This document shows, one piece after another, positions 12,706 through 30,576 of a stretch of DNA of 37,796 nt. The position numbers were made by a program, and so were the translations under genes. The stretch spans positions 1 through 37,796 of IMG/VR virus record IMGVR_UViG_3300027038_000043. One strand, given 5' to 3'. Position 1 is the stretch's first letter. Each line of letters starts with the position of its first letter. The DNA comes from a virus. Lineage: Duplodnaviria > Caudoviricetes. The notes beneath the pieces were generated by a model. That model did no database searches. It worked only from the letters and a program-made list of their open reading frames with translations, and was not told where the DNA came from.

Positions 12706-15700
12706 ATGGAAGAAGCTACTGGTCTTGCGGTCCAATCTACTTCACAAATTGCTGAAATCCGTGCAGCTGCAAGTGTGCTGATAGAAAGAATGCAATTCTT
12801 GCGGCAAGCAGGAATCTCATTCAAAGGAGAACGAGATCTCTACGAAATTCTTGGATATGAACGACTTCTTACCAATAGAGACTTTCGTGATCGTTATGCT
12901 CGTGGTGGTATCGCTGGACGAATCGTCGACGCGTTTCCTAAAGCCACATGGCGCGGTGGTTGGGAACTGATAGAAGATGAAGATCCACAGACGGATACCA
13001 AATTTGAAAAAACGTGGCGAGAATTAGCAAATCGATTAAAGATTGGTGCGGTTTTACAACGTGCGGATATTCTTGCTGGGCTCAGTACATATGCGGTTGT
13101 ATTGATTGGAGCGAAAGGTTCAGCAAATTTGGACGAAGAACTACCAAGGGGTAATCCTGATGATCTTTTATATCTAACACCATTCTCAGGTGGTGGTGGT
13201 CCTGGTGCTTCGCAACGTCGCTCAATGACAATTGATGCAGATGCAACCATACAAACGTATGTGACGGATACGTCTGATGAACGATTTGGTCTTCCTCTTA
13301 CTTACTCTCTTAAGCGCACTGATTTTTCTGTTCCTACCTTTGTGAAAACTGTACACTGGACACGAGTAATCCACATAGCTGAAGGAATACTTGATGATGA
13401 AGTATTTGGTCAGCCAGCGTTAGAGCGTGTCTGGAATTTGCTCGATGATCTTGATAAAGTGACTGGTGGTGGTGCGGAAGCATTTTGGCTGCGTGCGAAT
13501 CAAGGACTGCAACTTGATATTGATAAAGAGATGGACATGACGCCTGAGGAAAAAGAGGCGTTGAAGACGCAGGCAGATGAGTACCAGCATCAAATACGTC
13601 GTATGCTTCGCACTCGGGGTGTTTCTGTTAACACTCTGGGCAGCGATGTGGCAAATTTTAGCAATCCTGCTGACGCCGTCCTTACTCAAATCGCTGGTTC
13701 TAAAGGTATTCCAAAGCGGATTCTAACAGGATCTGAAATGGGAGAACTCGCTTCCTCCCAAGATCGTGATAACTGGAAAGACCAAGTGAACGGGCGTCAG
13801 ACCGAATACGCCGGTCCCTATATAGTACGGCCGTTAGTGGATCGGCTCATCAAGTTTGGATATCTCCCGACACCGAAAAAGGGTCCAACAGCATACGAAG
13901 TGCGATGGCCTCACATTCAGGTTCTAACAGAGCAGGAGAAATATCAAGGAGCACAAGCGTGGGCTTCTGCTAATCAAACGGCAGGAAAGCCTGTTTTTAC
14001 AGTAGATGAAATCCGAGATAGATGGTACGGTTTTGAACCATTAACAGAAGAACAAATTGCGAAAGAACTCCCACCTGCTCCACCAGAAGTACCTGGAGGA
14101 GAACTTCCACCAACAGAAGAAGAGATTGATCCAGAAACAGGTTTACCATTAGCGAGTTTGGATCCAGACATCGCTTCGTTTGTGGCTCCAAAAGATGCTC
14201 CAAAATCACTTCCTCGCGCCGCGGCAGCACTTCCTGAAGGATCCGAAAAGATTGATTCCGTAGTTGTGCCATTATCCAAGGATGAAATCTTCTCTCTCGC
14301 TGAAACAATAGATGCTGATTGGAAAGTTGGAGAGAAAGGACTTACTCGTGTTTTCAACTTTGCTGATCGTCGCATGTGTGCGTCTTTTATACAACAAATT
14401 GCGAAGGATGCGAACTCAGCGAATCATCACCCCGACATTGTAATGGATGGTGATTCAGTTGAAATCTCTTATACAACCCATTCGGTTGGTGATAAACTCA
14501 CCAAGCTAGATTTTGAAGCTGCGGCACGAGCCGATGCTCTTGCGCTGCCACTTCGAGCTGCCGGTGGTCCTGGCTCTGGTCCACAAAAAGGTCAAGGTTC
14601 GGGTCGTGTTCCTTACTCCCCATTTCCATCCGATTATGGCTTCACTGATCCTGCCGTACGAGCCAAGCTTGCTGACCATTTTGTAGAACTGCATAATTCT
14701 GCATCTAAGGAGTATAAGGAAGCATTCGCGAAGGTTGGCGCCAAGATGTGGCGGGATGATTATGCTCACCCACTGACTGGCGAAAATGCAGATTTCATAA
14801 AAGATCATGTTGCTAAGAGTACTCCTAATGCTATCAAGTCTATCTACACCATAACACGTCCTCTTACAATGCTCGACAGCTATCCAAATGTGCCAGCAAG
14901 TAAACGAGAGATACTTGACAAGGACGTCGACCGAATCTTCAACAAATATCAGCATCAGTGGACACGAACAATTAAGACTCTTGGTGGTCCTGGCTCTGGC
15001 CCAAATCCTGGCGGTGGATCTCGTGATAACGGGGGTGATGACGATGACTCGGTGAAATTTGATAACAGAGAACTTCGTCATAATTGGACAGAAGGATCTC
15101 GTGCTACTCAATCCAAGATGAGTGATCCTACAACACCAGAGGGTGAGGAATTTTCAAAATATCTAGACACACTGCCGAAAGTTGATGGCACTTTTTATCG
15201 GGGGATGGTTGTAACATCAGAAAACTTTGAGAAAATGAAATCTGATACGAGCTATAACCTGACCAAACACTCATCTTCATCTGATAACAAGGATATAGCT
15301 GAGGGATTTCTTGGAGAACAATCTGGTTCTGAAGATGGTGTTCTAGTTCTCTTAAAAATAGAAGGATCTGGACGAAAACTAACTTCAGCTGAAGACGATC
15401 TTGAAGATGAGGGTGAAGTTGTTCTTCTCGCTGGAACACAGTATGAACGTGTTTCTTTTGAGAAGATGAAATCTGTAGAAGATAGTTGGCAGATTACATA
15501 TCGCGAGAAGAAAATACCAAAAACTCTTGGTGGTCCTGGCTCTGGTCCTCACCCGGGACCAGCTCGAACCACATCAGATGTACGCAAAGCAAACAATTTA
15601 TCAGCAACTGCAAATGCTCTTTCACAGAAAGCTGTGAAATCTGGTAATAAAGAAGACCATATCGCTGCTGCAAATGCTCATCAGATAGCAGCACGTTCAC

Positions 15701-17841
15701 AATCTGGTCTTGGGTTATCAATGATCGCATCAGATCACGCTGTTCAGGCACGAATGCACTTGGACGAGACGAAATCTGAAGCGGATCACGTAGCTGCTGT
15801 TGAGCAACGTATTCGCGAAAATAATGGTGATATTGAGGAACGCGAAGATCAGATGAATCTTTCGCGAATACCTGCTGATCGTCTTCAAGACGAAATCAAG
15901 TATGCAGAGAAAGGAGGAGGAGACGACGTTACCATCAAGATTCCTTCTGGCTCTGAATTCTCGATGTCCTTGAAGGAAGCGAAAGCAGTTCTCAAAGAAA
16001 TCACGAAACACCGTGGTCGCCATCTTGAAACGACAGAGCAGGAATTATATGTTCTTGGTGGTCCTGGTTCTGGTCCTCGCGATCAAGGCAAAGGTCGCAA
16101 ACCAGGAATTGGTCGGCAGCCCGCAGCAATCAAACCTTCGGGGATCAAGCAAAAATTTAGCAAAGATGGTCGTCCTGTTCCTATTATTACCACTTCCATC
16201 GAAGAAGCAATTCTTCTAGTACATGAAGGTCTTGTTGTTCAAGTTCGCGATGTTAAAGAAGCGCACACACTAATAGAGCGTCTTGCTGCTCTCGCGACTG
16301 CTGCACAAGCTGCGGGAAAAGACGCGAAGGACTATGATCTTTGCCAGGTCTCAGTTGCTGGCAGTAACATGTTCTGTTCTGAAAGTCTACGATCTGAGAA
16401 ATATCCAGATGGTGTGCCACGACTTGAAATGCCACAACTTGGTGGCCTGACTGTTCCAGGATCTGAAGCAGACAACTTAAAGAAAGATGAAGAAGGCAAA
16501 GTTAATGGGGCTGAAGCCTTCAAAGACCATCTGAAATCTCTAGGAATTGATATTTCTTCCGAGAATGTAAAATCTTCTAGTCTAAAAGCCAGCCAGCGAG
16601 AACTTATTGGTTCTAAGGTTGCTGGAATGATGGCTCGGATGGAAAAGGAACGGGAAGGTAAGAAGTCTGATAATAAAGAGAAGAATGCTATCTTTGTTTC
16701 GAGCGATAATTATGTAATAGATGGTCATCACCGTTGGGCGGCGTCTGTAGGGAAAGATGCGGCAGATGGTAGACTTGGTGATAGCAAGATGCATATCATT
16801 CGAGTCGACTCACCAATATCTGAAATCCTACAAATTGCGAATAAGTGGGGCAAAGAATTTGGTATTAAGCAAGTAGCAGGTGTCAAGAAGGAAAAGAAAG
16901 AGCGAGAAGCAAAGGGAAAGAAACTTAAGACTGCAGCAGAACGATGGGCAGAAACGCATAAATTCTCATCTACCCAAGTTAACCTACCCTCTTCTGTCGC
17001 CAATAAAATTCTGACGTTTGCGGCTGAAATCCCAGATGAGGATCTTGCTGAAGATGGTCGTGAAACAACTCCTCATGTTACTGTGAAGTACGGCATTCAT
17101 ACGTACGATCCTGGTCAAATTCGCGAAATTGTTGAAGGATTCGGTCCAATCACTCTCTCATTTGGGCCATTGTCATATTTTCCAAACACCGAATCAAATC
17201 ATGGTGATGTGATTTATGTTGATATTCTCAGTCCGGATCTAGAAAGACTGAACACTCTTCTTTCCACTTCACTCGAAGTGACAGATACCCATCCGAAGTA
17301 TAGACCACATGCGACGATTGCATATGTTGAAACTGGTCTAGGAGAATTTTACACAAGTGATCCGTATCATGAGCTTTTTGGCCAATCAGTAACAATCAAT
17401 GAAATCGAATTCTCTACTCCAGATGATGAACGAACAGTCATAAATCTTTTAGACGAGATAACTGAGGAACAACGTGAAATAGTATTGACACTTGAAGCAG
17501 CAATTCAAACGAACAACACTGAAATCATTGATAAGATTATTGGGACTAAACATTCTCTTGTTTCTGCTCCAGTGGAAAAAGAAGTTGAAGATGTAAAAGT
17601 CTTGGAAATTCGTCAGCTGACAGAGCAGACAAAGAAATTACAGGATGCTCTAGAAAAACAGATACCAACTACATTAGAAGCAGTCGAAAATCCCATGTCC
17701 GCTGAAATCCGAGCTTTAATCGAATCCGTTAAATTGTTGGCTGCTCGAGAGACCCCAGTGCCTCGTAAGAAAATTACACGAGTTGAACGAGATGAGAAAG
17801 GTTTATTGAAATCTTTTGTGACAGAAGAAGACAATGCCTGA
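12706..17841 (+). CDS. portal protein (DUF1073-like) with about 1200-aa modular cargo extension (PCD, unknown, ART, His-rich, ParB/Srx, 2H phosphoesterase)
   Basis: N-terminal 450 aa has portal motifs (YARGGIAGRIVD.FP..TWR, VHWTRVIH, IAGSKGIPKRILTGSE.GELAS.QD..NW); position after TerL; extension punctuated by four GGPGSGP tags. Confidence 0.9.
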   Translation: MEEATGLAVQSTSQIAEIRAAASVLIERMQFLRQAGISFKGERDLYEILGYERLLTNRDFRDRYARGGIAGRIVDAFPKATWRGGWELIEDEDPQTDTKFEKTWRELANRLKIGAVLQRADILAGLSTYAVVLIGAKGSANLDEELPRGNPDDLLYLTPFSGGGGPGASQRRSMTIDADATIQTYVTDTSDERFGLPLTYSLKRTDFSVPTFVKTVHWTRVIHIAEGILDDEVFGQPALERVWNLLDDLDKVTGGGAEAFWLRANQGLQLDIDKEMDMTPEEKEALKTQADEYQHQIRRMLRTRGVSVNTLGSDVANFSNPADAVLTQIAGSKGIPKRILTGSEMGELASSQDRDNWKDQVNGRQTEYAGPYIVRPLVDRLIKFGYLPTPKKGPTAYEVRWPHIQVLTEQEKYQGAQAWASANQTAGKPVFTVDEIRDRWYGFEPLTEEQIAKELPPAPPEVPGGELPPTEEEIDPETGLPLASLDPDIASFVAPKDAPKSLPRAAAALPEGSEKIDSVVVPLSKDEIFSLAETIDADWKVGEKGLTRVFNFADRRMCASFIQQIAKDANSANHHPDIVMDGDSVEISYTTHSVGDKLTKLDFEAAARADALALPLRAAGGPGSGPQKGQGSGRVPYSPFPSDYGFTDPAVRAKLADHFVELHNSASKEYKEAFAKVGAKMWRDDYAHPLTGENADFIKDHVAKSTPNAIKSIYTITRPLTMLDSYPNVPASKREILDKDVDRIFNKYQHQWTRTIKTLGGPGSGPNPGGGSRDNGGDDDDSVKFDNRELRHNWTEGSRATQSKMSDPTTPEGEEFSKYLDTLPKVDGTFYRGMVVTSENFEKMKSDTSYNLTKHSSSSDNKDIAEGFLGEQSGSEDGVLVLLKIEGSGRKLTSAEDDLEDEGEVVLLAGTQYERVSFEKMKSVEDSWQITYREKKIPKTLGGPGSGPHPGPARTTSDVRKANNLSATANALSQKAVKSGNKEDHIAAANAHQIAARSQSGLGLSMIASDHAVQARMHLDETKSEADHVAAVEQRIRENNGDIEEREDQMNLSRIPADRLQDEIKYAEKGGGDDVTIKIPSGSEFSMSLKEAKAVLKEITKHRGRHLETTEQELYVLGGPGSGPRDQGKGRKPGIGRQPAAIKPSGIKQKFSKDGRPVPIITTSIEEAILLVHEGLVVQVRDVKEAHTLIERLAALATAAQAAGKDAKDYDLCQVSVAGSNMFCSESLRSEKYPDGVPRLEMPQLGGLTVPGSEADNLKKDEEGKVNGAEAFKDHLKSLGIDISSENVKSSSLKASQRELIGSKVAGMMARMEKEREGKKSDNKEKNAIFVSSDNYVIDGHHRWAASVGKDAADGRLGDSKMHIIRVDSPISEILQIANKWGKEFGIKQVAGVKKEKKEREAKGKKLKTAAERWAETHKFSSTQVNLPSSVANKILTFAAEIPDEDLAEDGRETTPHVTVKYGIHTYDPGQIREIVEGFGPITLSFGPLSYFPNTESNHGDVIYVDILSPDLERLNTLLSTSLEVTDTHPKYRPHATIAYVETGLGEFYTSDPYHELFGQSVTINEIEFSTPDDERTVINLLDEITEEQREIVLTLEAAIQTNNTEIIDKIIGTKHSLVSAPVEKEVEDVKVLEIRQLTEQTKKLQDALEKQIPTTLEAVENPMSAEIRALIESVKLLAARETPVPRKKITRVERDEKGLLKSFVTEEDNA

Positions 17842-18193
17842 CTTGAAAACGACAGAGTTACCCGCGATTAGTGAGCCACTCACGTTAGCTTCCTTGCTCA
17901 TGGTGGTGCCAGATCCTGATGTTGCATTCACGAAAAAAGCAACATTAGCTGAAATCTTTGCTGCAGCAGCTTTACATGATGTTGCTATTGGGGAATTGGT
18001 TATCGGTGCTATTGATGGTGTGAATACTGTTTTCACAACCTCTGGATCATATCGAGCGCAGTCTCTTATGGTGTGGTTAAACGGACTTCGTCAAGCACGA
18101 ACAATTGATTACACAGAGACATCCGATACGACATTTTCTATGCTTGTTGCACCTATTCCCGGTGATGTCATTATTGTCGATTATTTCACGTAG
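17834..18193 (+). CDS. putative virion decoration/fibre-associated protein
   Basis: G.IDGVNTVFT...VWLNGLRQ...DYT...AP..GD.I.VDY domain shared with the C-terminus of the next gene. Confidence 0.7.
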   Translation: MPDLKTTELPAISEPLTLASLLMVVPDPDVAFTKKATLAEIFAAAALHDVAIGELVIGAIDGVNTVFTTSGSYRAQSLMVWLNGLRQARTIDYTETSDTTFSMLVAPIPGDVIIVDYFT

Positions 18194-18205
18194 AAAGTAG
18201 GAAGA

Positions 18206-19552
18206 ATGGCTGGTACAAAAATTCGTGGCAATACGCAAATCCTCGCAGCATCTATTACTGACGCTGAAATAGCTGTTGCTGCTGCTATTGCTTTGTCAAA
18301 ACTGGCTGAACCAGTTATTCAGGCAGACGGTGGTCAAGCATTCACGGCGGATCAGTCTCACGGTGGATTCAAGATTACCAATCTAGGTACACCATCTTCT
18401 TCGACAGATGCTACCACAAAAGGCTATGTAGATGGTGTAGCATCGGGATTACAAATTCATAATCCGGTTCGTGCTGCTACTGTTGGCAATATTACATTGA
18501 GCGGTGCTCAAACAATTGATGGTGTTTCCGTTATTGCTACGGACCGTGTGCTTGTCAAGGATCAGTCTGCGGGTCAAGATAATGGTATTTATGTAGCAGC
18601 GGCTGGTGCATGGGTCAGAGCAACGGATCTTGATCTGACGTCGGAGTTAATCTCCGGCATCTTTGTGTTCGTGCAAGAAGGCACTGTCAATGACAATACA
18701 GGATGGGTGCTTTCGACCGCGAACCCAATGACACTCGGTACGACTCCACAAGTATGGTCTCAATTTTCTGGTGCAGGACAGGTTATCGCTGGTACTGGTC
18801 TTACGAAATCTGGTAACACTCTTGATGTTGGTGGTGGTGACGGTATTACAATGGCTGCTGATGGCCATTCTGTCAATATTGATACAGCAGCTGGACTAAA
18901 ATTCGACGCATCGTCTCCCAAGAAAGTTCAAGTCGCAATTTCGACAGATCTAGAATTTAGTGCAGGCAATCTTCGGCTTGCCGCAGCCGTGGCCGGTGCT
19001 GGTTTAACAGGTGGTGCTGGCGCAGCTCTTGCTGTTGGTGCTGGGACAGGGTTGACAGTTGCTGCCGACGCTATCGGTATCACGGCTGGTGGCGTCGGCC
19101 CGACAGAACTTGCGGCGTCTGTGGCCGGTAATGGCTTGACAGGTGGTGGTGGTTCCGCCATCAATGTGGTGGGCGGCGATGGATTGGTCGTTGCAGCTGA
19201 TCTGGTATCAGTTGGCATTGATACGTCTGTTGGGTTGAAATTTGATGCGTCGTCCCCGAAAAAGTTACAGGTTGCGTTAGATGGTACATCTCTTTCTGTT
19301 AGTGCAAGTGGTCTGAAAGTCAATGCCGCGAAATTTATCACTCGTGAAACGCCAACTGGTCTTGTGAATGGTGCAAACGTGACCTACACACTCGCGTCAA
19401 CGCCAATTGCTGGGACGGAACAAATCTTTTTGAACGGATTGCTCCAGGAGCCAGGTGCTGGTAACGATTACACTATAAGTGGTGGCACTATTACATATTT
19501 GACAGCGCCGGTAACAGGTGATCGTCTTCGCGTTAATTATATCATCGCATAA
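18206..19552 (+). CDS. head decoration/fibre protein
   Basis: ITNLGTP...DATTKGYVD, VRAAT..NITLSG.QTIDGV, DRVLVKDQ....NGIY motifs; Gly/Ala-rich shaft with duplicated GLKFDASSPKK. Confidence 0.8.
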   Translation: MAGTKIRGNTQILAASITDAEIAVAAAIALSKLAEPVIQADGGQAFTADQSHGGFKITNLGTPSSSTDATTKGYVDGVASGLQIHNPVRAATVGNITLSGAQTIDGVSVIATDRVLVKDQSAGQDNGIYVAAAGAWVRATDLDLTSELISGIFVFVQEGTVNDNTGWVLSTANPMTLGTTPQVWSQFSGAGQVIAGTGLTKSGNTLDVGGGDGITMAADGHSVNIDTAAGLKFDASSPKKVQVAISTDLEFSAGNLRLAAAVAGAGLTGGAGAALAVGAGTGLTVAADAIGITAGGVGPTELAASVAGNGLTGGGGSAINVVGGDGLVVAADLVSVGIDTSVGLKFDASSPKKLQVALDGTSLSVSASGLKVNAAKFITRETPTGLVNGANVTYTLASTPIAGTEQIFLNGLLQEPGAGNDYTISGGTITYLTAPVTGDRLRVNYIIA

Positions 19553-19554
19553 TT

Positions 19555-20433
19555 ATGGCGCGTACTGAACTGCGTGGCGGTCAAGTTAAAGACGCCTCTA
19601 TTGGGCGTTCTGACCTTATTACAGGCACAGCTGGTGAAGCTGTGATCGCTAAATTGGTGGCTGGATTTGGTGTGACACTTTCAGGTACTGGCGCGGATTC
19701 TGGTACTGGGGATGTCACCATCTCTGCGGGGAAATGGACGGTCCTTACAAACGCTGATACGGGGGCGCAGAATAATTGGGCACCGGGACTCAGTGGTAAT
19801 ACTCTGTGCATTTGGTCTGGTGCGGCTGACGCGGCCATGACGGGGATAGCCGGTGGTGTTGTAGGGCAGATCTTCGCAATTAAAAACACCGGCACGAAGA
19901 TTGTGACGTTTGCCCATAATTCTGGTAGCTCGTCCGCTGGTAACAAATGCTTCAATTTTGTAGCGAGTAGTGTGACCCCAGTCGCGCCAGGAGGCTATAG
20001 CGCATGGCAGCATGATGGTACACAGTGGCAGATCATTGCACACGAGCAAGGGGCGTGGATTACGCCGACGTTTGCCGCTGGTGACTACACCTCAAATGCT
20101 GGCACATGGGTATTATCGTCACCCGATCGCGTGACTGGATCATACATCTTAAAAGGTCGTACGCTTTCTTTCATCTACACCCTGAACACGACAACGATTA
20201 CTGGAGCACCAACGGTACTTCTTATTGGAAATGGTGCATGGGGAGGATTTACTATCGCTTCAACTTCCACACAAAAAATGGGCTATGCAAATGATGGAGC
20301 TGTGCACCCGAGTTACGTGCAAGCGACGGCCACAGCTACGACATTTGGTCTCAATAAAGATTCTGGTGCAGCATGGACAGCCAACACCAATGCCTCCTAT
20401 TTTCAAGGCAATATTGATTGTGAGGTGACGTAA
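19555..20433 (+). CDS. fibre-like structural protein
   Basis: G/T/A-rich beta composition; N-terminus similar to the previous gene (MARTELRGGQV vs MAGTKIRGNTQI). Confidence 0.7.
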   Translation: MARTELRGGQVKDASIGRSDLITGTAGEAVIAKLVAGFGVTLSGTGADSGTGDVTISAGKWTVLTNADTGAQNNWAPGLSGNTLCIWSGAADAAMTGIAGGVVGQIFAIKNTGTKIVTFAHNSGSSSAGNKCFNFVASSVTPVAPGGYSAWQHDGTQWQIIAHEQGAWITPTFAAGDYTSNAGTWVLSSPDRVTGSYILKGRTLSFIYTLNTTTITGAPTVLLIGNGAWGGFTIASTSTQKMGYANDGAVHPSYVQATATATTFGLNKDSGAAWTANTNASYFQGNIDCEVT

Positions 20434-20816: not shown

Positions 20817-21307
20817 AATTACTGCTTGAACAAGGTGGAGAACTACTCCTTGAACAGGGTGGATCTCTACTGCTTGAACAAGCAGAACACGTTGGTGCAG
20901 TAATCTTTGAAGCTCCTGAGATAACTGGGTTAGGAAATGTTGCTGCTCCAGTTATTGAAGAACAAACTGGTGGTGATGGCGAAATCGTCCGAGTCCATCG
21001 CAGACCACGTCTTATTCCTGTTAAAATTGTTGGCGATGCTAATGTTACCTTTGAAACACAAGTACAAGGACAAGGCGTCGTCGGACTACCAAAAATTTCT
21101 GGTATTTGTGCGATCTCTATTGCAGAAGCAGAAGTTAGTGGTAATGGTCTCATAACTCTGCCACAAATTGTTGGCATTGGTTCTACAACGTTTGCTGCAC
21201 CAAAAATTTCTGGCCAAGGCCAAATAGAGACGGAACTAGAAATCCAAATACGTCGAGAAGATGAAATCCTTGAAGCGTGGTTGTTGATGCACGAAGACGC
21301 CGCATGA
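20813..21307 (+). CDS. hypothetical structural protein with LLLEQGG repeats
   Basis: LLLEQGG-ELLLEQGG-SLLLEQ N-terminus; GTGA coupling. Confidence 0.7.
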   Translation: MKLLLEQGGELLLEQGGSLLLEQAEHVGAVIFEAPEITGLGNVAAPVIEEQTGGDGEIVRVHRRPRLIPVKIVGDANVTFETQVQGQGVVGLPKISGICAISIAEAEVSGNGLITLPQIVGIGSTTFAAPKISGQGQIETELEIQIRREDEILEAWLLMHEDAA

Positions 21308-24300
21308 TTCAACTACCTCTCGAACCATCGGTCGCTGCCCGCTTGTTGCTGCTCGCACATCTGCGCTTGAGCGGAGGACCAGGCAGCGGACCAAATGTTG
21401 ATCGCGGCAGTCGTCGTCGTATCAAATCACGACCACCAAAAATGTCGATTGGTCAAATTAGTCATGATGGTTCTATTGAATCAAAAGAATTTGATTCTCT
21501 GAAAAGTGTAAATCACGTTGAAATCTTTAATCGCCGAGCATCAGCTTCTCAAAAATTTCGCTATCAAGCAGAAACAGTACATTGGGACGATTGGCCGTCT
21601 AAAGATGATCGTTTTTCTGTTGAAGATCATTACGACAGACTCGGATTAAAAGTAAGAGATCACCGTGTTCTTGGTCATCTAATTGCTGCTGGTGGTCCAG
21701 GCAGCGGACCAAATCCTGGCCAAGGCAAACGATCTAAAATTGGTGATGGAATCACGGCACGACGTCAAGGAGACTTTGATTTTAAGACTCTCGGATTCCG
21801 ACGATTCATGTACGGTCCGGAATCCGAAACAATAGTCTTTGGTAAACGATGGCCTCAGGGTGCGCCGGGTGTTTGGGAAGACATAGGTGCATCTCATTCT
21901 GAAGAATTCCAGTTCGCGAAACAAGATCATGGGGTTCTTGGTCATTTTGACCAATATGTAAAAGGATGGATTAATCCACCAACAGAGCGTATGCCTGGTG
22001 GTATTATTGAAATCCAAGCTCCTGATGGTCAATATTTGCCAGGTGGAAGTTCTGGAACACAACTCAGAGATGTGGATGCAAATCAGGCAGCAGTATTTGA
22101 TGCTATTCACAAAACTATAGAGCAATTTGTGAAAGCAGGTGCAACTAGACAGACAGTTATACTTGCTACAGGATTTAGAGGACCACTTGGTGAACAGTTT
22201 CCTCACTTGTTTAAGAAGCCACGAAATCTTGGTGGTGCAGGATCTGGTAACTTTGATCATGCTGGTCGACCAGGAGAGGTTGGTGGTTCAGGCGATGGCG
22301 ACGACAATGTTATTGAAGGGCATCTTGGTACCGCTCGAATCACAAAAACTGTAGATGGCACGTTTATTGTGAATCTAGACGAAGAGCACGCGCATATTGG
22401 AAAAGTGTTTGCATCACGAGACGATGCTCTAGACTACGCTCGATACAGAACTCGTGGTGATAAAAATCGGCTCACATATAATGACGAAGACAAAGCAAAA
22501 CTCCAAGCTGATAGAGATGCTCGTGCAGAACAAGAGCGTCTTGATCATTCCTATGATCCTGATGTGATTGAAGCAGGTATAAAAGAACATGAAGTAGAAC
22601 TAGCTTCTCGAAGACCAGAAACAACCACGTTCTATCACGGCACTTCGTCTGAAGCTCTTCGAAAGATAAAAACTGAAGGTCTGTTGCCAGGTCGTGGTGA
22701 AGGTGCAGATGCATGGGCTGAGGAAGAATACGAGGGACGTTCTAATGATTTCAGTATTGGTGACCGAAAAGCTTCGGTCTTCATTACTTCACGTTTAGAT
22801 CAAGCAGTAACGTACTCAGAGTATGCTGAGAAAATAACTGGCTCTCGACCAATCATTTTAGCGATTGAAGTTCCTCAAGATCAGTTAGTGAATCTCAAGC
22901 CAGATGAAATGTCTGAAGGAAAGCATGCATGGCGAACCAATAAGGGAATTCCACCGACATGGATTCTTGGCCAGATAAAGAAAACTCATGGTCCTAGTGG
23001 TGGTAAAATCACAGCACTCGCAGTTAGTAGAGTCTTCTATTTTGTGATTCCCATAGTTGAGACAGAGCTCCGTGTGACAGGTGGTCCTGGCTCTGGCCCA
23101 AATGTGGGTGGTGGCTCACGTTTTGACGATGACAATAAAGTAAGTCCTGTTCGTACGTCTACGCACGGTCTAGAAGTGAAATGTGCATGGTGTAAGAAAG
23201 ATATGGGCTGGAAGAAAGGACCTTTCTCTGGTCTTGTATCTCACGGAATGTGCGATGATTGTGTGAAAGCATTTGACGCACCAGAACCCAAGACTGCTAT
23301 TGGAACTGAAACATCTGGTAATTATGGGCATGCTGGACGACCTGGTGAAATCGGTGGAAGTGGCCCGGGTGGTGGCGGAGAAGTTTCAGGTCGAGTATTA
23401 GGAGATGATCAACCTACTCTCGAAGCGGGAATGAAGCGTATTGCAGAACTGATCTCATCCCCTGACTCACCAACGGCGTATGAAATCGATAATGAAGACG
23501 ACAGTGATTTTACCGACATACGCATTTCTTCTGAAGACGGAAACCGCACTATTGAAGTGTGTATCGAAACAGATGAAAACGATGACGGTGACAGTGTAAC
23601 AACGGCAGACCTTGCTCTAATAGATTTTAAAACTCCTGTTTCTGGAGTTGTGATTCGTCAAGCAATTGGTGAAATGTTTCAAGCTCTTGAAGATACAAAA
23701 GTAGACTATGCACAACTTCGTGCGGGATTACAGGATGGTGGCTACCTTTGGGCGCGAATGGGTTTTCGTGCAGAAAATCCAAAGGACTTCGTGAAGACCG
23801 TCGAGAAGAATCTACTCGAAGCGGAAGCACGAAAAGTTACACCTGAACAAGTGGCGCAGATTCGTAAGCTGATGGAGAATCCAACACCAAAACTTCCGCA
23901 ACAAATTGCTGATCTTAAGATCATTGGAAAACGAATTCTGCGAGGAACAGATTGGCTTGGAAAGGTAAAACTTTCTTCTCCACAGTTTAAATCACGAAGA
24001 GATCACTACTTGGGACGAAATAAACAGGAATTGTTGAAAGCTGCAGAAACACGACTTGAATATCCGTGGTTTGAACGAGCAATGCTTGGAGCAGACGACT
24101 TTGAACCTGGTGTAGATGATGAAATCTGTGACCCAAAGATTTATCGGATAGCAGGAGGTTCTGGGTCTGGTAATTTCCAACATTCTGGTCGACCAGGGGA
24201 AGTTGGTGGCTCTGGGGAAGGCGCAGGAGATTCCAAGAGATCAAGTATCTATCTCGGAAAGTCATCCGGCAAATTTAAAATTTCTAAGAAATCTGGCGAC

Positions 24301-25179
24301 AACATCAAGAAGGTAGATTTTGGTAGTGAGCATTATAATGTTGATAAGTCAGAGATGGCTGAGAACATAAATAATATGTTCCATCTCAAAGAGTCTCCAG
24401 ATGGCTATCCTATCAATTTCTACGATAAAAAAGAACAAGACGAAATGCTCTCTGAAAGCCAGCGTATTGCTAGTGCGCTAGTCGCTGATGCTAGCAAAGA
24501 TTTCGACATTCGTGTGATTCCTTATCAGACAGGCATATCGGTTGAATATGTGTCCGAAAACACGTCTTTGCTACGTTCGTTCTCACGAGGTGAGAATAAC
24601 GAACTTGTTGCCCATCATGATTTTTTTGAAACTGATAAACAAGGTGCTGGACTTGCGAAAGAAATCTTACGTTCAAGTTTTGCCGAGTACGAAAAACTTG
24701 GTGTTGATAAAGTAGAGTTAACAGCAAATCGAGATGTTGGTCGTTATGCTTGGGCCAAATACGGTTTTGTTCCAGAAGACCATGAAACATACAATGTTTA
24801 TAAATCAGCTTTGCAAGTGATGGAAGCTGAACCTGAAAAAGGAATACTTCTTGAGCAATTGATTAAAGATACCAAAAGAGAAATGAAGTCAGAAAGACCA
24901 AATCCTGAGCACATTTGGAAAATTGCAGATCATGTCGATGGATTCAAGTGGCTTGCTGGTTCGAGTGACTCTCCTTCGTGGGAAGGTAAGTTGAGCTTGA
25001 AAAACGAACGTCAGATGGAACGTCTTGCGAAATACCTCGATACGAAGAGTAAACCTCATGTGGCTGATAGAGCGAGACGTGTCAAAGAAGTCGAAGAAGA
25101 AGGTGATGACGATTCTGTAGTTAGCTCGTATGATGAAATGCCTTCTCCATCGCAGCCAAATTTCAGGACCAAGAAGTGA
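21304..25179 (+). CDS. multi-module cargo polyprotein (two unknown modules, ART/Tpt1-like, Zn finger, two GNAT-like)
   Basis: ATG at 21304 overlaps the upstream TGA; six Gly-rich tags; FYHGT, CAWC..SHGMCDDC, GGYLWARMGF, QGAGLA and GRYAWAKYGF motifs. Confidence 0.85.
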   Translation: MIQLPLEPSVAARLLLLAHLRLSGGPGSGPNVDRGSRRRIKSRPPKMSIGQISHDGSIESKEFDSLKSVNHVEIFNRRASASQKFRYQAETVHWDDWPSKDDRFSVEDHYDRLGLKVRDHRVLGHLIAAGGPGSGPNPGQGKRSKIGDGITARRQGDFDFKTLGFRRFMYGPESETIVFGKRWPQGAPGVWEDIGASHSEEFQFAKQDHGVLGHFDQYVKGWINPPTERMPGGIIEIQAPDGQYLPGGSSGTQLRDVDANQAAVFDAIHKTIEQFVKAGATRQTVILATGFRGPLGEQFPHLFKKPRNLGGAGSGNFDHAGRPGEVGGSGDGDDNVIEGHLGTARITKTVDGTFIVNLDEEHAHIGKVFASRDDALDYARYRTRGDKNRLTYNDEDKAKLQADRDARAEQERLDHSYDPDVIEAGIKEHEVELASRRPETTTFYHGTSSEALRKIKTEGLLPGRGEGADAWAEEEYEGRSNDFSIGDRKASVFITSRLDQAVTYSEYAEKITGSRPIILAIEVPQDQLVNLKPDEMSEGKHAWRTNKGIPPTWILGQIKKTHGPSGGKITALAVSRVFYFVIPIVETELRVTGGPGSGPNVGGGSRFDDDNKVSPVRTSTHGLEVKCAWCKKDMGWKKGPFSGLVSHGMCDDCVKAFDAPEPKTAIGTETSGNYGHAGRPGEIGGSGPGGGGEVSGRVLGDDQPTLEAGMKRIAELISSPDSPTAYEIDNEDDSDFTDIRISSEDGNRTIEVCIETDENDDGDSVTTADLALIDFKTPVSGVVIRQAIGEMFQALEDTKVDYAQLRAGLQDGGYLWARMGFRAENPKDFVKTVEKNLLEAEARKVTPEQVAQIRKLMENPTPKLPQQIADLKIIGKRILRGTDWLGKVKLSSPQFKSRRDHYLGRNKQELLKAAETRLEYPWFERAMLGADDFEPGVDDEICDPKIYRIAGGSGSGNFQHSGRPGEVGGSGEGAGDSKRSSIYLGKSSGKFKISKKSGDNIKKVDFGSEHYNVDKSEMAENINNMFHLKESPDGYPINFYDKKEQDEMLSESQRIASALVADASKDFDIRVIPYQTGISVEYVSENTSLLRSFSRGENNELVAHHDFFETDKQGAGLAKEILRSSFAEYEKLGVDKVELTANRDVGRYAWAKYGFVPEDHETYNVYKSALQVMEAEPEKGILLEQLIKDTKREMKSERPNPEHIWKIADHVDGFKWLAGSSDSPSWEGKLSLKNERQMERLAKYLDTKSKPHVADRARRVKEVEEEGDDDSVVSSYDEMPSPSQPNFRTKK

Positions 25180-26588
25180 GCGGCAACGAACTCTTTTATC
25201 ATGATGAAAACGGCGTGAAGCAGGATCGCGCCTTGTGGGAAGAACTGCTCGGCGAGAAATTTCCTGAAATCCGAGATCTCGGAGGACCAGGCTCTGGACC
25301 ACAAGTTGGCGATGGATCTCATGATGCTCGTTCCAAATCTTTTTCTACAAATCTACTGGGTCGAGATCCAGAAGGACACGATCCAGCAGGAGAACTAGGA
25401 AAACACTTACCAGACTTGTGGAATGAAAAAGGTAAGAACGAAGCAAAGCAGTATTTGCGAAATAGTATCCAGCGTGGAACCGAAGAACTTGAAGGACCAC
25501 AACGAGACCAAAAGTTGAGTAAGCAAGGTAATGACGTTGAGATTACATTACGTCGTGTTTCACCAGATGAAATAGATCGAGTACATCTTCGTGGTGACAC
25601 ACGGTATAGTCATGGTGAAATGGCAGAGTATCTCAAAACTTCCGGTAAGGAGCTACCACCAATTCAACTTGGTCAAACTGAGCACGGTTTACATCTCCTC
25701 GACGGTCATCATCGGTGGCGCGCATATCTGGAAGCAGGAAAATCTCCATTAGTGTTTATCACGAAAACTGTGCCTGGTGTTATCGGAAATCCGCAAGTTC
25801 ATCTGAAGATTGAACTTGGTGAACATCGTGCGGCAGCCAAACGTTCACGTTCAGAGACAATTCTTCATAAAGCTGCTGACAAGCATCTTGATAAAGTACA
25901 AACAGCAATCATACAGGCATTGAAATCTGGGCAACAATCCGTTCTTCGTTCTCAATTATCACAAGCAATTCAGTCAAGAAATAGGCACCAAGCTGAAATC
26001 GCTATGGCTATCGCGCCAAGCGTTGTTCGAACAGCACTTCTGACAGCACTTCCTTCCGTTCTACTCGAAGTGTTGGCAGATGGCAAAGTGGCTGGATCCC
26101 AGTTGTTGAAAAGTAAACTTCGTGTAACGGAATTAAGAGTTGCTGCTGGTCCGGACGATCGTGCGAAAGAGTGGGCTCGTGATCATGCTGCTGAACTCGC
26201 AAAAGATATTTCTGATACTACTCGTCAAGATATCGCTGACGCAATAGTTGACGCATTTGATGATGGCGACCTAGAAAATGCTGAAGAGCGTATAATTGAA
26301 GCAGTTGGTGATGAAACTCGGGGTGCCATGATCGCGCGAACTGAAATTATGACTGCTGTTCATGTTGGTCAACGTCAATCATGGCAAGATGCTGTTGATG
26401 AAGGTATTCTTAGTGGGAAGGAACGTCGAGAGTGGATAGCAGTTGAGGGTGCGTGTGACGAATGCGGATTTCTTGATGGGACTACAGCGTCTCTAGATGG
26501 TGAATACGATGATCCAGGTGGAGATGGACCTCCACTTCACCCAAATTGTAGGTGCTCCGAGTCCATTTCTTCCGGAGGTGATGAATGA
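25176..26588 (+). CDS. MuF (Mu gpF/SPP1 gp7-like) head morphogenesis protein with N-terminal ParB/Srx-like module
   Basis: C-terminal MIARTE...W....ACDEC..LDG...PPLHPNCRC; N-terminal GGPGSGP tag then LPPI...LLDGHHRW. Confidence 0.88.
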   Translation: MSGNELFYHDENGVKQDRALWEELLGEKFPEIRDLGGPGSGPQVGDGSHDARSKSFSTNLLGRDPEGHDPAGELGKHLPDLWNEKGKNEAKQYLRNSIQRGTEELEGPQRDQKLSKQGNDVEITLRRVSPDEIDRVHLRGDTRYSHGEMAEYLKTSGKELPPIQLGQTEHGLHLLDGHHRWRAYLEAGKSPLVFITKTVPGVIGNPQVHLKIELGEHRAAAKRSRSETILHKAADKHLDKVQTAIIQALKSGQQSVLRSQLSQAIQSRNRHQAEIAMAIAPSVVRTALLTALPSVLLEVLADGKVAGSQLLKSKLRVTELRVAAGPDDRAKEWARDHAAELAKDISDTTRQDIADAIVDAFDDGDLENAEERIIEAVGDETRGAMIARTEIMTAVHVGQRQSWQDAVDEGILSGKERREWIAVEGACDECGFLDGTTASLDGEYDDPGGDGPPLHPNCRCSESISSGGDE

Positions 26589-26728
26589 ATCTCTTAGTTT
26601 TGCTCATTATTCTCATTCTCTTGTTTGGCGGTGGTGGATGGTATTCAGGTAATAACAATGTCGCTATTGGTGTTCCTGGGATACTAATTATCATTCTCAT
26701 CATTTTGCTAGTTACAGGAAGGCTCTAA
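26585..26728 (+). CDS. 47-aa DUF3309-like membrane protein
   Basis: Hand translation MNLLVLLIILILLFGGGGWYSGNNNVAIGVPGILIIILIILLVTGRL; GGAGG SD, ATGA overlap. Confidence 0.75.
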   Translation: MNLLVLLIILILLFGGGGWYSGNNNVAIGVPGILIIILIILLVTGRL

Positions 26729-26740
26729 CAGGAGACTAAA

Positions 26741-29700
26741 ATGGAAAAAGTTGCTCGGCATGTTCATCTCATTGGTGCGGCTGGGCAACTACGCACAGCG
26801 ACCTATGACAGTCGAGAACATCTAGTGCTACCAGTTATTGCCCTTATTGAGGGCGTAATCCATGCTGTGAACGCGGACACCCCTGAATTTGTTCCGTTAA
26901 CGTCACTGATGGCTGCTCCACAAGGTTGGAATGGTCGACCAGTCGTATATGGACATCCTGTACGAAATGGCCGGCAGATTTCAGCCAATGACCCACTTGT
27001 ACTTGAGAAACAATCATTTGGTGTGGTGTTTCAATCGCGAATGAATGGTTCACGATTAGGCATGGAAGCGTGGTTGGATCCGAAGAAAGCCGAACGTGTT
27101 GGGGCTCAGCGGACACTCGAACGAATTCGAGCGGGAGAAACAGTAGAAGTGTCCGTTGGTGCGTTTGTGGTAACAGAGGATAAACAAGGCTACCATAATG
27201 GAAAAGCCTACAAAGCCATTTGGCGTGATATTATTCCGGATCATCTAGCCATCCTCGAAGATGGAAAGATAGGTGCGTGTAGTTGCGCGATGGGGTGTGG
27301 AACACCACGAATGGCAGCTGCAATTCATCTTGTGACTGCTGAAGGATTCCAGACCTTTGAGACACTTGGTGGTCCTGGCTCTGGCCCACAAAAAGGTGAT
27401 GGTTCTGGCCATGTAGGAAGCAAAAATCGCGATTGGGGATCGGGTGGTGGACTTGGATCGGGCGAATATGTTGATTTTGGATCTGTAGAACAGTCTTTAA
27501 GTGGCTCAACAATTTCTGAAAAAGCGGACAAATTAAGTGAAGAAGCAAATAAATCTGGGTCTGTTGCTTCTCACGCTCAAGCTACGATGGCTCATGATAA
27601 AGCTGCCAGATCTCATCATCAGCGCGGTGATGTGTATAGAGCAGATCATCACTTGAAAAAAGCTAGAGAACATCGCCAAAAGACTACTGAATTACAGAAA
27701 GTAAGAGCTGCTGGTGGTCCAGGTTCAGGCCCGCAAAAAGATGGTGATCGTTTTGGCCTGACGAGAGAGCAAAAAGATAAGAATTACGAGATCATGCACG
27801 GTAAGCCAAAGGAACGAAACTGGAATCCAGATAATACCAATAAAAGTCCTGATTGGCGTTCTGGCCCACAAGGATCTCATAAAAATTTTGATGACAAAGA
27901 CGCAATGAGAATTGCCGATATTCTTGTTAAAGCAAAAGACAGTCCAGAGAAAGCTGAAAAGTTAGCATCTCAAATGGCTCGCTCTATCAAAGACGTTGAT
28001 AAAGCTCTGAGACGGGGAAATGCTGCTAAGGATGCTGGTCAACATAAAATTGCGAAAATTTTCCATGATCGTCACAAGGAGCTGCGTGGTGCTGAAGAAA
28101 TTCACAATTTTGCGGATAGAGTTATCAAAATTTTGAACGGAGAAAATATGGAATTTGAAACACTAGGAGGTCCTGGCTCTGGGCCAAATCCTGGCGACGG
28201 AAAGGGTCGAGGAAAAGGTGACGGCGAAAAATCTGGTGGGAAACTTGGTAAGATTTCTTCCATTGGAGAACTTCATCGGCTAGCTAAGGAAGATCCACGA
28301 TACGAAAAACTTGCGATGGTAGCATCTGAAAATCTTGGTCATGAAGCTAAAGATCTTGATGATGCCATTAAGTGGTTAAACACCAACGCGAACGAGACAG
28401 ATGAAAAAGGTGTGGTTGGTGAAATTAATTTTGTTCGCGATATTGTAACTGATCCAAAAGGGGAGAAGTTAGAGAAAACAGAAAAAGCAAGCAAGCCACT
28501 CTCTGGCAAAGCTGACAAAGATGCCAAATCCATTCTTGGTTCTGGTGTCAAGGGCAATGGCAGAGAATTCACGTGGAGTAAACGTGGTGGCTATGCTGAT
28601 GCCAAATTGAAGAAAGTGGAAGAGAAACTTCGTGCAAAAGGTTTTGTTGAAGAAACTGGATCATCTAGTTCGAGTCCTGACGGTTCATATATTGGAAATG
28701 CAACACGATATTCTCATCCGGATGGTCACTCAGCTCGTATAGATCGGGACTATGGGAACACCAAAGGGGACAATCGATTTTCAGCAACTATCAAGTTTAG
28801 AGGAGCTGAAATAAGAGATGCTGAAATCGTGGAAGAACAAGAGGATATTCTTAGTTACGCAACAATGGATACTCTTCTTGAACAGATAGGAGAATCCTAC
28901 GACGAAATCTCAAGTGTAGTTGAAGATTTGAGAGCAGCAGAAGAATATCCGGCATCAACGCCAGAAGAGGAGGAATCTGAAGAAGAGATAGAGACAGCTC
29001 GCCTAGAATCACTTCAAGCTTTGTGTATCGCCACGTATCATTCTCTTAATGCTATGATGAGCATGGCGAATAACTTGCTCGACCTTCAGACAGATGACAT
29101 GCGTCATGCTGCTCGAAGAATTATCGATTGCAAAGCTTGTGAAGGGTCGGGCAACAAGGATGGTAATCCTTGTGAAGTATGCGATGGAGATGGCGAGCTT
29201 CGGGTGGCTGTTGGTGCCAGACATTCTGTAAGTGATCTCAAAGTTATTCAGGACGTTCACGATGGTGCTGTGAAATTGGGCGCTGATTGCAAACCGCAAT
29301 TGCGTGATATGGAGAGTAAAATGCCATTCAAGCCATTTGAAAAGAAAACAACAGATTGTGATGCCTGTGATGGCACTGGTAAAAAGGATGGCGAAGAGTG
29401 TGATAAGTGTGAAGGTAAGGGCAAAGTTCCATTTAAGCTCAAGGAAGCAGAGGGAGTGAAGATGACGAAGGAAGCGAAGACCGAACTTATCAAGACACTT
29501 GTTAGTGACAAGCACAGTGGTTTTACGGTGGCGGACGAAAAGATGCTAGAAGCCGCATCTGATGAGCGTCTCGAAGCATTTCGAGTAGCATCAGTAGCGA
29601 GAGCGGCTGAAATCAAGGCGGCTGCGGCTGCGAAGAGTGAACAGCCAAAGCTGAGCGACGACGATTTCGTGAAGGAGTTTGGCGTCGAGCGCGGAGCACT

Positions 29701-29989
29701 GAAAACGTTGGTTGCTAAACAGCAAGCGCAGGAAACTGAGCGAAAAGCGGAACTCGTTGCTGCGCTGAAAACTGCGCAGAGCGAATACTCAGAATCGGAG
29801 TTGGCAGCTGAATCGTTGGAGAGACTCGAACGATTGGCAAAAGTGGCCAAGATCCAGTCGGCTTCTGTCAGCTACGAGGGTGCTCGATTGGTGCCTCGCG
29901 CAGCTGCGGCCAAAGACGATGTGTTTGCGAATCCTCCCGATCCGTATGCGGCTGGTCTCGAAGCGATGCGGAAGGGTTCAATCAACTAA
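26741..29989 (+). CDS. prohead maturation protease (DUF2213-like) fused to cargo modules and scaffold
   Basis: WNGRPVVYGHP, EVSVG, PDHLAIL, GACS motifs in the first 195 aa; three GGPGSGP tags; acidic/coiled-coil scaffold-like C-terminus; position before the capsid genes. Confidence 0.88.
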   Translation: MEKVARHVHLIGAAGQLRTATYDSREHLVLPVIALIEGVIHAVNADTPEFVPLTSLMAAPQGWNGRPVVYGHPVRNGRQISANDPLVLEKQSFGVVFQSRMNGSRLGMEAWLDPKKAERVGAQRTLERIRAGETVEVSVGAFVVTEDKQGYHNGKAYKAIWRDIIPDHLAILEDGKIGACSCAMGCGTPRMAAAIHLVTAEGFQTFETLGGPGSGPQKGDGSGHVGSKNRDWGSGGGLGSGEYVDFGSVEQSLSGSTISEKADKLSEEANKSGSVASHAQATMAHDKAARSHHQRGDVYRADHHLKKAREHRQKTTELQKVRAAGGPGSGPQKDGDRFGLTREQKDKNYEIMHGKPKERNWNPDNTNKSPDWRSGPQGSHKNFDDKDAMRIADILVKAKDSPEKAEKLASQMARSIKDVDKALRRGNAAKDAGQHKIAKIFHDRHKELRGAEEIHNFADRVIKILNGENMEFETLGGPGSGPNPGDGKGRGKGDGEKSGGKLGKISSIGELHRLAKEDPRYEKLAMVASENLGHEAKDLDDAIKWLNTNANETDEKGVVGEINFVRDIVTDPKGEKLEKTEKASKPLSGKADKDAKSILGSGVKGNGREFTWSKRGGYADAKLKKVEEKLRAKGFVEETGSSSSSPDGSYIGNATRYSHPDGHSARIDRDYGNTKGDNRFSATIKFRGAEIRDAEIVEEQEDILSYATMDTLLEQIGESYDEISSVVEDLRAAEEYPASTPEEEESEEEIETARLESLQALCIATYHSLNAMMSMANNLLDLQTDDMRHAARRIIDCKACEGSGNKDGNPCEVCDGDGELRVAVGARHSVSDLKVIQDVHDGAVKLGADCKPQLRDMESKMPFKPFEKKTTDCDACDGTGKKDGEECDKCEGKGKVPFKLKEAEGVKMTKEAKTELIKTLVSDKHSGFTVADEKMLEAASDERLEAFRVASVARAAEIKAAAAAKSEQPKLSDDDFVKEFGVERGALKTLVAKQQAQETERKAELVAALKTAQSEYSESELAAESLERLERLAKVAKIQSASVSYEGARLVPRAAAAKDDVFANPPDPYAAGLEAMRKGSIN

Positions 29990-30522: not shown

Positions 30523-30576
30523 CATTTCACTTGTGTGAAATGTACTTTGAAAACTGCTGGTTGTAGGAGGTATAGA

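Follow-up and report, generated by a model that had tools for sequence, protein, structure and literature searches.

A glycine-rich peptide that opens effector-like modules in phage head proteins: a putative delivery tag, probably unmasked by the prohead protease

The stretch of DNA analysed here, referred to as the window, is the whole 37,796-nt linear virus record IMGVR_UViG_3300027038_000043 (Duplodnaviria; Caudoviricetes). Within its head-assembly genes a short glycine-rich peptide, here called the tag, occurs 14 times, and each copy opens a module in the portal, the MuF protein, the protease-scaffold protein or a stand-alone polyprotein. Comparison of gene sequences suggests that this peptide is probably a retained N-terminal signal, which would be unmasked by the phage's own head protease and take the cargo behind it into the next host with the genome. 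The tag is real, widespread and apparently undescribed; fused, packaged effectors are already established as predictions.

Six-frame translation of the window gives exactly 11 copies of a short tag, GGPGSGP, and three of a long tag, GxxxSGN(F/Y)xHxGRPGE(V/I)GGS, all on the plus strand. The first-pass annotation of this DNA had placed 14 glycine-rich tags behind a series of four-residue motifs, and the translation agrees with it in both coordinates and motifs; three of the 14 motifs end in S, T or I, not in A or L. A degenerate DNA pattern for the short tag has 11 forward matches and no reverse match, and a backwards control has none. The 11 short tags are written in nine DNA spellings, with Ser encoded by TCT, TCA or AGC. 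This indicates that selection acts on the peptide. Three of the four carriers named by that annotation have family matches (portal, PF06381/phrog_146; MuF, PF04233; protease, PF09979), and the fourth, the polyprotein at 21277..25179, has no Pfam family. The annotation's range of 70–340 amino acids for the modules becomes 74–341, and holds only if the modules at 16057, 25281 and 28166 end at untagged sites, which gives them 293, 185 and 214 amino acids. The carriers, modules and associated features, all on the plus strand, are as follows.

12706..17841, plus: portal-cargo polyprotein of 1711 amino acids, with a portal core (residues about 1–506; PF06381, phrog_146), a pterin-4a-carbinolamine dehydratase-like (PCD) module, four tagged modules, a 2H module and a short tail
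14224..14562, plus: untagged PCD module after PRAA (PF01329, E 3e-21)
14563..14982, plus: tagged module, 140 amino acids, short tag at 14563-14583 after LRAA (sequence)
14983..15528, plus: tagged VIP2/Alt-type ADP-ribosyltransferase (ART)-like module, 182 amino acids, after IKTL (jack-knife profile, E 8e-16)
15529..16056, plus: tagged module, 176 amino acids, after PKTL (sequence)
16057..16935, plus: tagged ParB/Srx-like module, 293 amino acids, after LYVL (Atlas features)
16936..17604, plus: untagged 2H phosphoesterase module after LKTA (PF13563, E 1e-9; weak Acb1 match, E 0.04)
21277..25179, plus: stand-alone polyprotein with six tagged modules, probable start ATG at 21304
21304..21372, plus: 23-residue leader of the polyprotein (likeness to other Ala/Leu-clade leaders, by inspection)
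21373..21690, plus: tagged module, 106 amino acids, after LRLS (sequence)
21691..22230, plus: tagged module, 180 amino acids, after LIAA (sequence)
22231..23079, plus: long tag (22231-22293) after PRNL and HYE-type ART-like module, 283 amino acids (E 3e-24; weak Tpt1)
23080..23301, plus: tagged Cys/His (zinc-finger-like) module, 74 amino acids, after LRVT (sequence only)
23302..24045, plus: long tag variant (23302-23364) after PKTA-I and GNAT-like module (E 1e-7)
24154..25179, plus: long tag (24154-24216) after YRIA and GNAT-like module, 341 amino acids (E 3e-17)
25176..26588, plus: MuF protein with a 35-residue leader, a tagged ParB-like module (25281-25835) after IRDL and the MuF part from 25836 (PF04233, E 5e-11; phrog_1033)
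26741..27316, plus: DUF2213 prohead protease domain (PF09979), ending in the release-type site PRMA
27368..28807, plus: three tagged modules within the protease-scaffold, at 27368 (after FETL), 27713 (VRAA) and 28166 (FETL) (sequence)
28808..29989, plus: scaffold part with DnaJ-type zinc fingers, 11 untagged consensus sites and a C-terminal hook after PRAA (29894-29905)
30535..31563, plus: major capsid protein, predicted propeptide junction LRAL/S at 30670-30682

The ART and GNAT calls were made with profiles built without the window's own sequences. These four modules are confirmed, as are the 2H and PCD modules, which carry no tag and follow untagged sites as first described. The two ParB-like calls are weaker. 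That at 16057 rests on Atlas features (0.95), with PF08857 in 57% of its cluster and no Pfam match of its own, and that at 25281 on phrog_1033 alone (E 2e-5). The zinc finger at 23080 is a CxxC..HxxCxxC pattern seen by eye, with no family match. Profile searches including Pfam and PHROG gave no family for the tagged modules at 14563, 15529, 21373, 21691, 27368, 27713 and 28166, and Atlas gave no usable family for the 21691 module.

By comparison across genomes, the residue immediately before the tag (P1) appears as a readout of prohead protease specificity. Fifty-one records were searched for four protease families and the search was extended with local profiles; P1 was tallied over distinct tags in de-duplicated records with an identified protease, records without one being excluded. 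It is Lys in 32/32 tags of the S78 class (8 records), Asp in 39 and Glu in one of 40 with a canonical DUF2213 protease (21 records), and Ala or Leu in 64/69 of the divergent DUF2213 group with an Ala-type end, which is the window's clade (13 records). A third DUF2213 group has Asn (3/3), the Mu-like class has Leu, Phe or Tyr (13/13), and the XkdF class has six Lys and one Phe. Lys at P1 agrees with the known cut of HK97. Identity of P1 within a genome is 0.68, compared with 0.16 after shuffling (maximum 0.24 of 5000; 45 records, 205 tags; kinship ignored), while P2, P6 and P8 lie at background (0.10–0.17) and P3 at 0.31. Within single proteins it is 0.82 versus 0.21 (106 of 120 proteins with at least two tags, 430 tags; kinship ignored). 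In held-out material, P1 was Ala or Leu in 19/19 tags from loci found by protease homology and Asp in 11/12 prophage loci with a canonical DUF2213, some of these prophages being close to training records.

The protease of the window fits this pattern. Its domain (26741..27316) matches PF09979 over the cut-off (E 3.9e-9), the gene also matches three PHROG 'head maturation protease' families, and on a tree the domain falls in a divergent DUF2213 subgroup with support of 100/100. His72, Ser138 and His168 are invariant in 22 sequences. The predicted model (pLDDT 86) has as its best PDB matches T4 gp21 (E 1.7e-3, just outside the 1e-3 threshold) and herpes assemblins. By profile and fold this is an assemblin-fold (clan SH) DUF2213 prohead protease; that it cuts at the site before the tag is strongly inferred from co-variation.

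Native junctions of the head follow the same classes. The motif at the end of the protease domain is (I/L)-x-D for the Asp group, R-x-A for the group that includes the window (where it reads PRMA) and x-x-N for the Asn group, and a second site of the class type precedes the C-terminal hook of the scaffold. The two can be likened to the release and maturation sites of herpesviruses. Capsid junctions have R-x-(A/L) in 7/7 cases, Asn in 4/4 and Lys in S78 capsids. Protease end and capsid junction were compared in 57 distinct pairs from the protease-selected loci: 23 have Ala or Leu at both, 18 Asn at both, eight are crossed and eight other (Fisher p 2e-6, uncorrected). With 41 of 57 agreeing and eight crossed, Ala/Leu and Asn blend within this clade. 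In the window, the consensus site occurs 11 times in 393 amino acids of scaffold, three times in 2830 amino acids of cargo interiors and 12 times in 4386 amino acids of 20 other open reading frames (ORFs). The DUF2213 family of the window protease includes gp24 of Pa193, in which the capsid is resolved from residue 66 and cleavage was not determined (PMC11456595). The coat of ES18, a cultured relative of the Asn type, has AVN/AVG at residues 51/52, which matches the removal of 51 residues from this coat. P1 thus changes together with the family of the protease and with the junctions of protease, scaffold and capsid, which supports the earlier proposal that the phage's own prohead protease does the cutting.

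Outside the window, a long-core pattern found 161 viral loci in one third of the collection, and a profile of 36 tags, with 7,978 candidates scored, placed the tag in at least 1,629 protein clusters. Its consensus is GG(P/A/E/K)GSGN(F/Y)GHxGRPG(E/Q/K)(V/R/I)GGS, with GGPGSG(P/R) as the short form, and twelve positions of the long form do not vary among 36 aligned copies. Used by itself, the short pattern GGPGSGP lacks specificity: the majority of the 123 viral loci that it picks up seem to be chance matches. Eighty loci from bacterial genomes were read with their flanks; 23 hold real tags and the other 57 chance matches of the long core. A head gene lies within 10 kb at 21/23 real-tag loci compared with 1/57 chance matches, where three of the 23 are one contig and the single head-linked chance match is a variant tag. 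At viral loci a head gene is nearby in 47/55, a count that is partly circular as the markers were drawn from the same loci. The link of the tag to head genes that the first-pass annotation expected is thus borne out, as is its expectation that cargo varies among relatives, by comparison of cargo across tag-bearing ORFs and protease-selected loci. None of the three sequence outcomes named beforehand as refuting the idea turned up.

Record titles of the real-tag loci name Clostridia, Dehalococcoidia, Omnitrophota, Melainabacteria, Alphaproteobacteria and two archaeal genera (the short loci L432 and L445), although these are binned contigs and may not give the true hosts. In 121 tag-bearing ORFs the tag is carried by portals (three Pfam families), by MuF, by proteases of several families, by ChaB and by stand-alone chains, and 324 tag-to-tag modules were delimited in 120 proteins (median 229 amino acids). 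The tag is optional. A protease-homology search gave 80 loci, six of them already known and set aside; of the 74 clade relatives counted, all partial loci, six carry the tag and three carry other tag types. Homologues of the 16057 module sit behind tags in phages with other proteases, among them records of the Phe class. To judge from these sequences, the same cargo moves between lineages and takes on the local P1. The tag has no match in PDB and no NCBIfam family over its cut-off, and PF23847 (DUF7211) was unmatched in the window's proteins and in the 121 tag-bearing ORFs. A Walker A/P-loop nucleoside triphosphatase identity was considered for the tag and rejected: its position 7 is N, P, R or W, not K, and the peptide is predicted to be disordered, so that there is resemblance only.

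Cargo appears to be sorted by the tag. Domains in tag-bearing ORFs were scored as tagged if they were the first domain within 170 amino acids behind a tag. By this count VIP2-type ARTs are tagged in 33/41 cases, HYE-type ARTs in 24/27, GNATs in 18/22, ParB-like domains in 13/14, zeta kinases in 11/13, topoisomerase IB in 7/7 and DUF3626 in 1/3, or 107/127 for all tagged classes. The untagged classes give 0/29, made up of 2H (0/11), Nudix (0/16) and PCD (0/2); the 2H cases span Lys, Ala/Leu and Phe lineages. Neither this division of enzyme classes nor the spread of the system over many head types had been part of the first-pass annotation. The untagged hydrolases of nucleotide signals would most likely serve the producer cell late in infection. 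Prohead proteases activate CBASS (an antiphage signalling system based on cyclic oligonucleotides) late in infection (bioRxiv 10.64898/2026.03.04.709575), and the nuclease Acb1 counters CBASS (PMC9117128). Late activation of this kind would explain a late-acting 2H enzyme.

One record, G051, carries tags that need no cut. All ten of its tags stand directly after a start codon (eight) or after Met-Val (two), mostly with a ribosome-binding-like sequence upstream. G051 encodes an SPP1 portal, MuF, a gp46-type scaffold and a capsid protein, together with tagged ART-like and S-adenosylmethionine (SAM)-lyase-like genes. It has no match for six protease families; at a completeness of about 79%, and allowing for divergence, a protease may have escaped this search. 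A scan for Met-GGPGSG, in which 79 of 121 loci found were read, gave five further loci where a short tag follows the initial Met, next to head genes of the SPP1 type and with no protease match; 45 of the 79 loci are Walker A loops, GGPGSGK(S/T). Met-initial tags in a virus with no detectable protease suggest that the tag is more than a cut site. On this sequence evidence, a position at or next to the N-terminus is what matters, and cutting is one way of reaching it. The proposal that cargo is loaded by fusion to an obligate head protein therefore stands as one route and not the sole one, since polyproteins have a short leader and G051 has the tag after Met. In the search set the first tag lies within 60 amino acids of the start in 58/109 tag-bearing proteins. 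Leaders look lineage-specific, and by inspection the window's 23-residue leader is like those of P0001, P0005, P0022, P0058 and P0105. By analogy with T4 it looks like a candidate removable capsid-targeting propeptide, equivalent to the T4 capsid-targeting sequence (CTS). A short lineage-specific leader followed by the tag would fit a two-part address, with a removable T4-like loading signal and then a retained common tag.

Several side observations concern related peptides. Four others, of the types W(D/N)ExxHPR, NPxHD, SNPEG and WITxxG, lie mostly behind the same genome-specific sites (L142, L150, L156, L183, L195, L069, L132, L465 and others); several types coexist in one genome, one sits close after a start in G051, and none is in the window. 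In L028:6433-10023 (also L573 and L631), S78-type phage of one lineage only, a tape-measure-like PF10145 protein begins with Met and the short tag. Met-GGPGSGG opens proteins in L567 and L583 that resemble P27-type small terminases, which hints at a DNA-binding arm. A basic variant, HWGHKGRKG, follows x-E-M/L or R-A-M in L569, L592 and L596. Between the terminase and portal genes of G051 (L199) lie about 13 kb of genes that by eye look sugar-modifying, one of them tagged.

A mechanism can be proposed in four steps. Cargo is translated in frame with the portal, MuF or protease-scaffold, or after a short leader, as the sequence shows, and would be built into the prohead in this form. The DUF2213 serine protease would then, very probably, cleave behind the motif hydrophobic-(R/K)-x-(A/L), and cleavage at this motif would also free the protease, chop the scaffold and trim the capsid protein. 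The tagged ART, GNAT, ParB-like and other products would probably be kept in the head, ejected, and modify the new host. The untagged 2H and PCD modules would be cut at the same kind of site and meet another fate, most likely in the producer cell late in infection. Finally, and only tentatively, DNA is put forward as the partner of the tag. GGPGSG is letter for letter a phosphate-binding loop, and it is followed by GRP or basic residues. The GRP core is like that of an AT-hook, and bare P-loops reportedly bind nucleic acid. Clustering of 2053 ORFs for a shared protein 'reader' showed that only the terminase and MuF span most classes among head-assembly proteins, and MuF was not detected in the near-complete records G006, G010, G040 and G049, nor in G025. 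The choice of DNA follows from the P-loop identity, the GRP core and the want of a shared protein partner, DNA being common to all head types that use the tag. The long tag alone is predicted to be disordered (pLDDT 59); the predicted complex of two capsid subunits with a long tag scored 0.00 and counts neither for nor against a partner. It is plausible that the dose of each cargo would be set by its carrier; the portal is present in 12 copies, and gp7 of SPP1 in one or two (PMC5576092).

The following points weigh against delivery by a protease-unmasked, DNA-binding tag. Cutting, packaging and ejection are predictions from gene sequences, and the P1 and sorting counts carry no correction for kinship. 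The Asn-end DUF2213 subgroup is mixed in its 22 tags (five N, four H, four L, three Q, three Y and one each of E, M and D), and one of its members, G032 (L326), has an Asn-type protease end yet four Leu tags, and may be an intermediate in a shift of specificity. G040 has an XkdF protease with Phe at P1. Glu-type tags resemble the L/I-x-E of T4, but the T4-type protease PF03420 was found in 0/44 records, in a search where the control was likewise silent; a single Glu-type record, G049, has the ClpP-type PF00574, as do four bacterial genomes. No match was found among 50,697 cultured phage records with two short low-complexity queries, a weak search, and no cultured phage with a long tag was met. 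Each of the 16 Nudix domains counted is fused to an Asp-class portal, and published work reads 2H and Nudix domains on portal or MuF as injected (Iyer 2017, PMC5512222; Iyer 2022, PMC9503650). The isoelectric points of the tagged modules range from 4.6 to 9.8, so that these are not uniformly basic. A strictly free Gly is not needed, given Met-Val-Gly in G051 and PKTA-I-G in the window. A DNA partner also gives no account of how the carrier-less proteins of G051 would enter the head.

The alternative that survives best, though still unlikely, is that the tag anchors cargo to a component of the head interior, whether coat, scaffold, portal or MuF, in the manner of an encapsulin-like loading peptide, loading or holding it while scaffold fragments leave, with passive ejection. 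This explains G051 better, since its tagged genes have neither carrier nor leader and the tag itself would do the loading. In addition, the 20-residue long form is highly invariant yet predicted to be disordered alone, as binding motifs are. DarA/Hdf of phage P1 lie on the inner capsid wall (PMC12810830), the DUF2213 phage Pa193 has unassigned trimers of about 16 residues under its hexons (PMC11456595), and MuF is present in 41/54 tag-selected records compared with 35% of tailed phages (PMC5576092). However, the same tag is used with portals from four Pfam families and with capsids of several groups that are not related, the only head-assembly proteins that span most classes by sequence are the terminase and MuF, the latter undetected in the five records named above, and carrier-fused cargo would not need a second loading signal.

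Action in the producer cell is improbable for the tagged modules. They would be cut free late and localized by the tag, for example to phage DNA, without being packaged. By position all are late-operon genes, prohead proteases can act on host proteins (bioRxiv 10.64898/2026.03.04.709575), and counter-defence of the packaging apparatus has been offered as an alternative role for such ARTs (Iyer 2022, PMC9503650). Against this, fusion to the portal or scaffold puts cargo within the prohead, and a tagged SAM-lyase-like protein and topoisomerase IB would fit entry better. Slightly less credible again is a purely mechanical role, in which the tag does no more than supply a flexible prime side for cleavage, as a spacer that aids the protease and has no later function. 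The tag is indeed Gly-rich, predicted to be unstructured and always behind the site. However, K, D, A/L, N, F and E sites are all followed by the same tag, which is missing at the native sites of protease, scaffold and capsid. It also opens proteins in a virus that apparently has no protease, does not occur on 2H, Nudix or PCD, and has the twelve invariant positions in its long form. A DNA-level recombination or insertion signature of mobile cassettes, with the peptide incidental, is largely refuted as the sole explanation: the same cargo does occur in different carriers and lineages, copies of tag DNA could seed exchange, and a low-depth contig of run X1, 86% alike, joins one tag copy to the 23302 module (a relative is the simpler explanation), but the 11 copies have nine spellings and two Ser codon families, are always in frame and have an upstream residue adapted to each phage's protease.

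Delivery by a retained tag has several known relatives. In polyvalent proteins and fused effectors, ART, GNAT, ParB, 2H, Nudix and zeta kinase domains share one chain with MuF, a portal or a capsid-processing peptidase, and are predicted to be packaged and injected (Iyer 2017, PMC5512222; Iyer 2022, PMC9503650). The window has the same features, with at least two disparate domains per chain (ART, ParB-like, 2H and PCD in the portal; ART and two GNATs in the polyprotein) and fusion to, or co-encoding with, virion genes. In the parts of those papers available, processing is proposed mainly by built-in zincin metallopeptidases and no shared peptide between modules is described; here each module junction has a protease-matched site and a common tag. 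The word 'glycine' does not occur in the available main text of PMC5512222, the LPD1-40 alignments lying outside the comparison. MuF polymorphic toxins likewise join MuF to variable effector domains in the packaging module, and gp7 of SPP1 binds the portal in one or two copies per capsid (PMC5576092). In those toxins MuF is N-terminal and the toxin C-terminal, whereas in the window the cargo is N-terminal, with PF04233 at residues 351–461 of 470, and there are three further carriers; 'cleav' and 'motif' do not occur in the available text of that paper. In T4, the same-fold prohead protease gp21 cuts scaffold, capsid and cargo (internal proteins and Alt) at one established motif, and the cargo is ejected (PMC9026906). 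The T4 CTS precedes the cut and is removed (PMC9026906), whereas the window's tag is C-terminal to the presumed cut, would be retained, is repeated in polyproteins and is found across unrelated heads and specificities. No paper on the GGPGSG tag was found in open-access text, subscription papers being outside this scope, and the available part of the Hardycor1 paper has nothing on cleavage.

The order of the head module is terminase (9279), portal (12706), five accessory genes, polyprotein (21277), MuF (25176), protease-scaffold (26741), decoration (30046) and capsid (30535). Two context genes complete the features.

9279..10874, plus: terminase large subunit (phrog_2, E 6e-28)
30046..30522, plus: head decoration protein (phrog_766)

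The five genes that separate portal from polyprotein (17834-21307) carry no tag, and one of these (18206-19552) encodes a Gly/Ala-rich protein similar to head decoration or fibre proteins (phrog_2647, E 2e-45). Between MuF and the protease (26591-26740) is a short hydrophobic frame with a Gly-rich loop (seen at 26633) that may encode a small membrane protein. Amid the cleavage motifs of the scaffold (28808-29449) lie two zinc fingers of the DnaJ type (CxxCxGxG), which are present in several relatives too. The left end (2-1570) encodes a VapE-like domain (PF05272) and a MUG113/T5orf172 protein. The record has an estimated completeness of about 51%. In the run from which the record may derive, a single contig covers the whole stretch, and near-identical pieces occur in three more samples, all of the same single study (four sediment/groundwater DNA runs). 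Among the contigs of these runs, none shows the phage of the window itself with a cassette deleted. The 14563 tag DNA is also present, in runs X2 and X4, on further contigs of the study, directly after a ribosome-binding site and ATG.

How small tailed phages pick the proteins that leave with their DNA is an open question; the signal of T4 covers loading and is then cut off. A peptide of 7–20 residues that would be kept on the cargo, occurs in more than 1,600 clusters and separates enzyme classes makes a sorting or ejection signal testable. It is possible, with rather less than even confidence, that tailed viruses of bacteria and archaea share a delivery code independent of head type, in which short N-terminal peptides (the Gly tag and at least four others), unmasked by a protease or placed after Met, tether effectors to the genome, while untagged products go to the producer cell. 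Even if the delivery role fails, the readout of P1 holds: it covers families for which no cleavage data were found (DUF2213 subgroups, XkdF, Mu-like) and bears on protease-sensing immunity such as CBASS. Likewise, the tag delimits hundreds of modules, which are ready-cut candidates for anti-defence screens.

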